Below, piece by piece: positions 9,874 to 10,819 of a stretch of 64,000 bases of DNA. The notes under the pieces were generated by a model. It was not told where the DNA came from. It made no database searches and worked only from the letters and a program-made list of their open reading frames with translations. Location of the stretch: NCBI RefSeq assembly GCF_002854065.1, contig NZ_CP024147.1; one strand, written 5' to 3'. The DNA comes from Escherichia coli (GTDB lineage Bacteria; Pseudomonadota; Gammaproteobacteria; Enterobacterales; Enterobacteriaceae). The position numbers were made by a program, and so were the translations under genes. Positions within the stretch are counted from its first letter, which is position 1, and each line of letters starts with the position of its first letter.

Positions 9874-10111
9874 ATGTTCCTGAAAACCGAATCATTTGAA
9901 CATAACGGTGTGACCGTCACGCTTTCTGAACTGTCAGCCCTGCAGCGTATTGAGCATCTCGCCCTGATGAAACGACAGGCAGAACAGGCGGAGTCAGACA
10001 GCAACCGGAAGTTTACTGTGGAAGACGCCATCAGAACCGGCGCTTTTGTGGTGGCGATGTCCCTGTGGCATAACCATCCGCAGAAGACAAAGCTGCCTTC
10101 TATGAATGAAT
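9874..10111 (+). pseudogene. Tail assembly chaperone G, N-terminal ~79 codons only (truncated by deletion)
   Basis: MFLKTESFEHNGVTVTLSELSALQRIEHLALMKRQAEQAESDSNRKFTVEDAIRTGAF...PSMNE matches lambda gpG, then frame and sequence switch. Confidence 0.8.
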
Positions 10112-10235
10112 TGGTGCTCATACGCACTCCGTTGCGATTGGTTCACATGGACACACCATCACCGTTAACGCTGCTGGTAACGCGGAAAACACCGTCAAAA
10201 ACATCGCATTTAACTATATTGTGAGGCTTGCATAA
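10112..10235 (+). pseudogene. 3' terminal fragment of side tail fibre gene stf (last ~41 codons)
   Basis: In its own frame encodes [44 protein letters not shown], the lambda Stf C-terminus; stop overlaps tfa ATG (TAATG). Confidence 0.75.
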
Positions 10236-10819
10236 TGGCATTCAGAATGAGTGAACAACCACGGACCATAAAAATTTATAATCTGCTGGCCGGAACTAAT
10301 GAATTTATTGGTGAAGGTGATGCATATATTCCGCCTCATACAGGTCTGCCAGCAAACAGTACCGATATTGCACCGCCAGATATTCCTGCTGGCTTTGTGG
10401 CTGTTTTCAACAGTGATGAGGCATCGTGGCATCTCGTTGAAGACCATCGGGGTAAAACGGTTTATGACGTAGCGTCAGGGGACGCGTTATTTATTTCTGA
10501 ACTCGGTCCGTTACCGGAAAATGTTACCTGGTTATCGCCGGAAGGGGAGTTTCAGAAGTGGAACGGCACAGCCTGGGTGAAAGATGCAGAAGCAGAAAAA
10601 CTGTTCCGGATCCGGGAGGCGGAAGAAACAAAAAACAGCCTGATGCAGGTAGCCAGTGAGCATATTGCGCCACTTCAGGATGCTGTAGATCTGGAAATCG
10701 CAACGGAGGAAGAAACCTCATTGCTGGAAGCCTGGAAAAAGTATCGGGTGTTGCTGAACCGTGTTGATACATCAACTGCACCTGATATTGAGTGGCCTAC
10801 GAACCCTGTCAGGGAGTAA
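10235..10819 (+). CDS. tfa: Tail fibre assembly protein Tfa (194 aa, intact)
   Basis: 194 aa [79 protein letters not shown]... matching lambda Tfa. Confidence 0.9.

Follow-up and report, generated by a model that had tools for sequence, protein, structure and literature searches.

How did the first part of a phage tail assembly chaperone gene come to lie directly against the last codons of a side tail fibre gene, and does the complete tail fibre assembly gene that follows them owe its survival to need or to the position of a break? The arrangement occupies positions 9874-10819 of a 64,000-nucleotide stretch of Escherichia coli DNA (contig NZ_CP024147.1, assembly GCF_002854065.1), here called the window, to whose numbering plain coordinates refer. 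The stretch contains a lambda-like prophage in which gene G is broken off (G'), only the 3' end of stf is left ('stf) and tfa is uninterrupted. In all likelihood, the segment is the scar of a non-homologous deletion in a decaying prophage of the DLP12 type. As a finding this is ordinary: objects of this kind are well known, and the allele itself is rare. What sets it apart is the right breakpoint alone, which other, independent prophage remnants share to the base.

Comparison of positions 8801-12000 with the lambda genome (NC_001416) by BLASTN yields four colinear pieces, two of which meet at the junction between G and stf. The left one, 9448-10110, corresponds to lambda 9285-9947 with 96.4% identity and comprises the 3' part of V and codons 1-79 of G, whereas the right one, 10110-10868, corresponds to lambda 21848-22608 with 92.7% identity and runs from the final 125 nt of stf through all of tfa to 51 nt past it. 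The open reading frame (ORF) that begins as G matches lambda G over residues 1-79(81) with 95% identity (E 2e-58), covers positions 1-80 of the 126 positions of the Pfam family Phage_TAC_2 and is, in the last 120 nt of G', 100% identical to G in at least 12 prophages of E. coli. G is incomplete, with residues 1-79 of 140 left, and T is absent. Past the junction the frame continues into stf DNA, and the resulting ORF of 116 aa (9874-10224) stops 10 nt upstream of the tfa ATG. In a different frame, the translation of 10113-10235 matches the last 40 residues of the lambda orf-314/Stf protein at 37 of 40 positions (E 1e-23), and the nucleotide identity of this remnant to stf of phage PhiR26_1 is 98-99%. 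Its frame is closed just upstream by a TGA at 10107-10109; only 40 codons are left, with no ATG, GTG or TTG before the final VRLA, and the remnant, which has no start codon, is dead. The product of tfa, by comparison, aligns without gaps over the full length of lambda Tfa (184 of 194 residues identical, 95%, E 1e-140) and matches the Pfam family Caudo_TAP (PF02413) with E 3.2e-45 and 153.9 bits against a cut-off of 22.1.

Measured on lambda, the deletion takes out 9948-21847, or 11.9 kb; measured on PhiR26_1, the closest intact relative in the phage collection, it takes out 30480-43131, or 12.65 kb. Lost with it are the 61 C-terminal codons of G (in lambda the site of the G-T frameshift lies among them), the genes T, H, M, L, K, I, J and lom, and all of stf but 40 codons. 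A preliminary description of the locus, made from the letters of the sequence, had read it as G up to about codon 79 followed by the C-terminus of the side tail fibre in another frame and an intact Tfa of 194 aa, with loss of the same genes from T to lom and of most of stf. The alignment to lambda coordinates bears out this join, with the earlier coordinates right within 1-2 nt, and the similarity of 10112-10235 to the 3' end of stf, on which that description had staked itself, is present. Its count of about 41 stf codons becomes 40 codons plus TAA, and its estimate of a loss of about 10 kb was too low.

The junctions discussed here were mapped to the base by exact extension, then by a best-switch-point method. 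For the G/stf junction the parents used were the G allele of the CT29 prophage, which is 100% identical to the window up to the break, and stf of PhiR26_1. With a slash at the break, the sequence is ...ATGAATGAA/GCCGTT in the left parent, ...GTCGGTA/TTGGTGC (in its longer form ...CTGTCGGTA/TTGGTGC) in the right parent and ...ATGAATGAATTGGTGC in the product. With these best parents the overlap is a single nucleotide, which does not fit slipped mispairing through a direct repeat of several nucleotides. Deletion adjacent to an insertion sequence (IS) is likewise set aside, as G and stf abut directly at 10110 and the nearest such element is the IS1 copy at 11853. A crossover motif of the Pin/Gin/Hin type, whose core we take to be AAACC-NN-GGTTT, was found neither in PhiR26_1 and the CT29 prophage nor in that part of the window which is prophage. 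The joining is best attributed to illegitimate recombination, by end-joining or template switching, and not to homologous, IS-mediated or invertase-mediated recombination. The DNA would have been broken, or copied discontinuously, after codon 79 of G and at a point 124 nt short of the end of stf, and a single shared base would have served to join what was left, with the loss of about 12 kb. G' would thereby have become a 116-aa ORF with a nonsense tail and the stf remnant would have been left dead, while tfa, lying wholly 3' of the break, would have survived with its own Shine-Dalgarno sequence and ATG.

The sole reason to consider an assembly or chimera artefact is that E. coli genomes hold repeated copies of tfa and stf, and such an origin is improbable in the extreme. 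The junction is not an assembly artefact because its 100-nt sequence is identical, at 100 of 100 positions, in the independent complete genome of strain 100416 (NZ_CM128593), and it recurs identically in two IMG/VR contigs from other projects. Strain 100416, from the Gambia, has the same architecture and the same junctions, with 99.97% identity over 8801-11852, and lacks the IS1 of 11853-12620; the PGAP annotation of its genome labels the pieces as a partial terminase small subunit, an Ig-like domain protein, a partial gpG, a partial phage tail protein and a tail fibre assembly protein. It is the only one of 5,426 complete E. coli genomes in which the 100-nt probe across the G/stf junction is complete. 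Among 98 occurrences in IMG/VR of the 22-mer immediately to the right of the junction, native stf lies upstream in 96 and the junction of the window in two (L024 and L075), and an exact 26-mer across the junction had zero matches in the JGI metagenome contigs. The allele is real, rare and lineage-specific.

The element that carries the scar, at 440-16945, is very probably a defective lambda-like prophage of the DLP12 type, located beside argU and with its right end at appY-ompT-envY. The tRNA gene identified by ARAGORN is adjoined by the integrase gene, as seen in the ORF list and by BLAST. On the right, the order is tfa-ybcY-tfaX-appY-ompT-envY-ybcH-nfrA, of which the part from tfa to envY equals DLP12 of strain K-12 at 98.9-99.7% identity. 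Colinear BLAST against K-12 574000-588000 and strain 100416 recovered the DLP12 order rusA-ylcG-quuD-porin-essD-rrrD-rzpD...nohD...tfa-ybcY-tfaX-appY-ompT-envY, in which the window has the bor/ybcW segment swapped for a GIY-YIG/T5orf172 gene. By location and gene order, therefore, the element is a DLP12-type cryptic prophage distinct from lambda itself, which corrects the preliminary description on the identity of the element. The features are collected in the table.

Table. Features of the DLP12-type prophage and its junctions in the window (strand "." for junctions)
Feature	Position	Strand	Evidence or remark
argU, tRNA-Arg(UCU) (tct)	365..441	+	ARAGORN; chromosomal attachment flank of DLP12-type prophages
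Integrase ORF, 387 aa	457-1620	-	99% identity to PhiR26_1 int end
Early-region junction, TA overlap	2561..2562	.	PhiR26_1 2124-14427 lost, ~12.3 kb
cos region and nu1 codons 1 to ~140 (nu1 ATG 9034)	8845..9452	+	BLASTN
Junction 1 (nu1/V)	9451..9454	.	2-4 nt overlap, TT or TTCC by reference
V 3' part (tail tube C-terminus and Ig-like domain)	9455..9858	+	Pfam, BLASTN
G', codons 1-79 of tail assembly chaperone gene G	9874..10110	+	BLASTN, protein match, Pfam
Junction 2 (G/stf)	10110	.	1-nt overlap, one shared A
Out-of-frame tail of the G' ORF, 37 codons of stf DNA	10111..10224	+	TGA 10222-10224
'stf, last 40 codons and TAA of side tail fibre gene	10113..10235	+	Protein match, nucleotide identity
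tfa, tail fibre assembly gene, uninterrupted, 194 codons	10235..10819	+	ORF, protein match, Pfam
ybcY-type S-adenosylmethionine-dependent methyltransferase gene	10874..11542	-	Intact in the window; pseudogene in K-12
tfaX, fragment of a second tfa	11599..11784	+	BLASTN, Pfam
IS1 (InsA and InsB ORFs)	11853..12620	+	Between tfaX and appY; 9-bp target duplication relative to K-12

Every parental segment of the window is supplied, in the same order, by PhiR26_1 (PV340555), the CT29 prophage and lambda, which keep what the window has lost, namely the early region, the block from A to V (8.68 kb) and the block from T to stf (12.65 kb). The ancestral late operon would have had the lambda order cos-nu1-A...V-G-T-H-M-L-K-I-J-lom-stf-tfa, as in intact PhiR26_1, whose prophage order is int...rusA-Q-porin-S-R-Rz-bor-ybcV-ybcW-nu1-A...stf-tfa-ybcY-tfa'-ompT. 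PhiR26_1 (L005) bears the full DLP12 order, including rusA, a porin gene like nmpC, bor, ybcV/W, ybcY and ompT, and it looks like a live DLP12, in effect an intact counterpart of the cryptic prophage of K-12. Compared with it, the immunity, replication, head and tail genes of the window's element are gone through three deletions of 12.3, 8.68 and 12.65 kb; altogether the element holds at least three deletion junctions as well as IS1 and IS2-like insertions. The early-region deletion accounts for the loss of the genes of recombination, replication and immunity (exo, bet, gam, kil, cI, cro, cII, O, P, ren ... ybcN), and its junction is also present in L075 and missing from L024.

The other late-region deletion lies immediately upstream of the segment. 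Positions 8845-9456 correspond to lambda 1-613 with 97.2% identity, and at the nu1/V junction about 8.68 kb are lost, from A to the 5' part of V (PhiR26_1 ~21142-29819). The joining is in frame and creates a single ORF of 274 aa (9034-9858), composed of residues 1 to ~140 of Nu1 and the C-terminal part of V, in which Pfam detects Phage_Nu1 over residues 1-145, Phage_TTP_12 over residues 135-180 and Big_2 over residues 189-267. This fusion, G' and 'stf are, on the sequence, best read as pseudogene debris. The same site in V (PhiR26_1 29817-29824) is used in the IMG/VR contig L178, where it is joined, in inverted orientation, to a hot site in U at 28855.

Since the nu1/V and G/stf junctions bound a short island of V and G, they might have been made in one complex event, for example by template switching from nu1 to V-G to stf that left an island of 663 bp. 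The probe for the nu1/V junction, like that for G/stf, is complete in one of the 5,426 genomes, again strain 100416, and L024 and L075 carry both junctions; the known instances thus number four (the window, strain 100416, L024 and L075), and each has the pair. No intermediate with one late junction alone was found in the 5,426 complete genomes, IMG/VR or the JGI metagenome contigs, and the pattern of nu1, a short island of 236-663 bp and stf is also seen in HKUOPY1, EC50, L178 and L162. Shared descent, however, would by itself make the junctions co-occur in four copies as close as these (99.7-100% identical), in whatever order the events took place; two deletions also yield islands naturally, and endpoints that bound islands occur singly elsewhere, such as the nu1 endpoint 21229, which is joined directly to stf. 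A single event is on balance unlikely. The preliminary claim of at least two independent deletions holds for the number, which is three or more with the early one, whereas the independence that it asserts is not shown by junctions that always co-occur.

Cryptic prophages of K-12 and other strains show how the window's allele relates to its kind. DLP12 of K-12 (nohD-aaaD-tfaD-ybcY-tfaX-appY-ompT) occupies the same site, with argU on the left and the same right flank as the window, and in both elements head and tail genes are deleted between the terminase genes and tfa. In K-12 there is, however, a single junction, which leads from A' (PhiR26_1 ~21550) into tfa (43403) with a TAT overlap; a complete nohD (the nu1 end) and the start of A are kept, and the first 49 codons of tfa are lost. 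The window, unlike K-12, has the V-G island, the stf remnant, a complete tfa, an intact ybcY and the nu1'/'V and G'/'stf junctions. Each allele keeps DNA that the other has lost, which implies separate decay from a fuller ancestor; judged on the retained segments, neither can derive from the other. The Qin prophage of K-12 (nohA-stfQ-tfaQ-pinQ) resembles the window in that a terminase small-subunit gene is joined to a 3' remnant of stf followed by an intact tfa. Its junction leads from A 21251 to stf 42305, a recurrent endpoint, and it differs from the window in its locus (ydfJ), a longer stf remnant, a pin recombinase gene beside tfaQ and an overlap of TA instead of a single A.

Among strains with the same left flank as the window (GIY-YIG gene, ybcV-like gene, ylcI, cos), GPEC1189 has a complete head-tail region, and others bear scars of various composition: nu1, a Z-U island and stf in HKUOPY1; nu1, an A island and stf in EC50; A joined to stf in LR-45; and nu1 joined to stf in XJ34 and VTB96935v. 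XJ34 matches the right arm of PhiR26_1 with 99.975% identity over 4 kb. The noh-stf'-tfa pattern also exists in remnants at other loci, among them remnants of the Qin type and one beside a diguanylate cyclase gene.

Could the surviving tfa be of use? Its ATG overlaps the stf stop in a native TAATG, with GAGG 8 nt upstream, and Q, the late-promoter region and the lysis genes are kept upstream of it; the deletions place tfa within ~5 kb of the lysis genes. In a consensus scan, a promoter-like site with 10 of 12 matches was found at 8782-8809, and the terminator-like sites between the lysis genes and tfa were weak ones only. The gene could be expressed by read-through of late transcription, and the stop of the G' ORF 10 nt before its ATG would permit ribosome re-initiation. 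Temperate phages acquire tail-fibre DNA from defective prophages, and tfa might be kept because it serves the host or superinfecting lambda-like phages, or because the stf'-tfa module acts as a recombination reservoir. In keeping with such a role, tfa is uninterrupted, without in-frame stops, in 15 of 17 remnant copies, the ratio of nonsynonymous to synonymous polymorphism (pN/pS) of its alleles is ~0.17, and in the window its Shine-Dalgarno sequence and ATG are intact behind the upstream ORF. Retention for usefulness nevertheless appears improbable, given that tfa of K-12 DLP12 and of PSJ-16 is 5'-truncated, that the neighbouring tfaX is a fragment everywhere and that stf, which encodes the cognate side fibre and partner of Tfa, is destroyed in the very element that carries tfa. 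Moreover, tfa was part of the queries that gathered the remnants for comparison, so that a remnant without the gene could not have come to light, and the low pN/pS may go back to a time when the gene belonged to intact phages; as a measure of function this ratio was rejected, for it cannot separate selection in remnants from selection in intact phages. For these last two reasons, the sampling and the possible age of the signal, selection for the retention of tfa is not shown. That tfa was spared, as the preliminary description put it, stands as a description and not as evidence of selection, and we infer that tfa survives because of where the break fell and not because it was needed.

Several points temper this reading of 9874-10819. 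The expression of tfa, as envisaged above, rests on consensus matches to promoters and terminators, and the two late-region junctions could have arisen in either order or together. Furthermore, two other remnants, whose left partners differ, begin their stf remnant at exactly the base that is the right endpoint of the G/stf junction; breakage at a preferred site would explain this better than a break at random. This endpoint, directly before TTGGTGCTCATACG (PhiR26_1 43131/2), has three left partners, G in the window, A in LR-45 and nu1 in GDSC2227PM and L125. The related loci are L010 (10396-10401), L015 (2140-2141) and L125, the window positions being 10110/10111.

This endpoint is one of several that recur. 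About 50 distinct junctions were derived from 17 genome loci, about 100 IMG/VR loci and metagenome matches; the loci were gathered by similarity or exact patterns and constitute a biased sample, in which some junctions may be sequential and not independent. An endpoint in nu1, after ...GCGCTGGATGAACTGATA or ...GAACTGATA (lambda 697, 14 nt before the start of A), is joined on its right to no fewer than 10 partners, which lie in Z, J, lom and at several positions of stf; stf 42305 (PhiR26_1 coordinates) has four left partners, including that of the nohA/stfQ scar of K-12 Qin, and A 21487 has four right partners. The dinucleotide TA is in the overlap in ~29 of ~50 junctions, compared with 2.45% expected for random junctions with an overlap of at least 2 nt. 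This class includes K-12 Qin (TA), K-12 DLP12 (TAT) and the early-region junction of the window (TA), while the G/stf junction has a TA site on its right side only, of which just the A is retained. Three control TA sites in nu1/A gave zero junctions in IMG/VR, compared with five loci and four partners for the nu1 hot site; a pair of matches at one of the controls proved to be unrelated sequences, and another match came from a divergent native A gene.

Relative to 738 background TA sites, the flanks of the TA endpoints are weakly two-fold symmetric, approximately C.G.TA.C.G, with G at -2 (p 4e-4) and C at +3, and C at -4 and G at +5 (p 5e-5), enriched. Codon-phase composition is insufficient as the source of this motif, as the enrichment remains within phase 3. 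In leave-one-out scoring with a reverse-complement matrix, 28 of 33 sites scored above the median (p 3e-5), with a median percentile of 0.69. Extended microhomology does not appear to drive the choice of partner: the 10-nt flanks of true partners are no more alike than those of shuffled ones, a result that favours a property of the individual site over simple slipped mispairing.

Together, endpoint reuse with different partners, the TA excess, the blank control sites, the flank enrichment and the leave-one-out result are consistent with a site-preferring break-and-rejoin, in which an enzyme would cut with a 2-nt stagger at TA within sites resembling C.G.TA.C.G. As the origin of the window's junction this is a possibility we hold with some doubt, since the responsible enzyme is only hypothetical, the motif is weak, the junction collection is biased and sequential events may contribute (Z 28595 and stf 42305, for instance, share the 8-mer TAACCGCG), and no crossover site of the Pin/Gin type is present. 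Nor does the G/stf junction itself fit well, with its 1-nt overlap and a left end that is not a TA site; the right endpoint (GTCGG TA/TTGG) could tentatively be seen as one such site, joined imprecisely to a non-site end in G.

Candidate enzymes that would cut with a 2-nt stagger are serine recombinases, transposases of the IS30 and IS630 types, GIY-YIG nucleases and restriction enzymes producing TA ends; RusA, for its part, cuts 5' of CC. Compared by eye with Chi-like sequences, the gyrase consensus, resolvase half-sites, integron secondary sites, the targets of IS5, IS630 and IS30, and RusA sites, the motif fitted none convincingly. IS30 itself does not fit: according to the published work on this element, it attacks its targets with a 2-bp stagger and stays at the deletion junctions that it produces. 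A literature search found nothing describing these junctions or a TA rule.

Outside the late region, the window has some further peculiarities. The GIY-YIG-family/T5orf172 (MUG113) gene at 6867-7265 encodes 132 aa and stands in place of bor/ybcW, flanked by the lysis genes and ybcV; of the 5,426 genomes, 69 cover at least 80% of the 3-kb stretch around it (6400-9440). The second partial tfa gives the fourth BLASTN piece, 11703-11845, which corresponds to lambda 22392-22534 and forms with 10654-10796 a direct repeat of 143 bp, 88% identical, which covers the 3' end of tfa and tfaX and flanks the reverse-oriented ybcY. IS1, missing from strain 100416, sits 60-70 bp 3' of tfaX and upstream of appY, and its insertion could alter the expression of appY. 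The 5' end of ompT is broken by a 1.33-kb element of the IS3 family (IS2-like) at 15112-16440 with an rve transposase ORF of 301 aa; ompT extends over ~14178-15111 and from 16441 onward, and the longest ORF left has 238 aa (14181-14897, minus strand).

The scar at 9874-10819, read as a non-homologous deletion, adds one more route by which DLP12 loses structural genes. For annotation, G', 'stf and the Nu1-V fusion are to be treated as pseudogene fragments and tfa as an orphan, and the comparison of alleles indicates that DLP12 decayed separately in different lineages of E. coli, starting from a more complete ancestor similar to PhiR26_1. More speculatively, the decay of lambda-like prophages in E. 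coli may run largely through a few preferred TA-centred breakpoints joined in many combinations by a hypothetical dimeric enzyme with a 2-nt stagger. Such an enzyme would repeatedly trim prophages to remnants of the form nu1'-'stf-tfa-cargo, of which the stf endpoint of the window and both K-12 scars might be examples, although we would not yet lean towards this. The recurrent TA-centred breakpoints are a lead, and an uncertain one, not a result. If they are real, prophage domestication would have a mechanistic, sequence-directed component, and it would be the position of DNA breaks, not selection, that accounts for the noh-stf'-tfa architecture so common among remnants.

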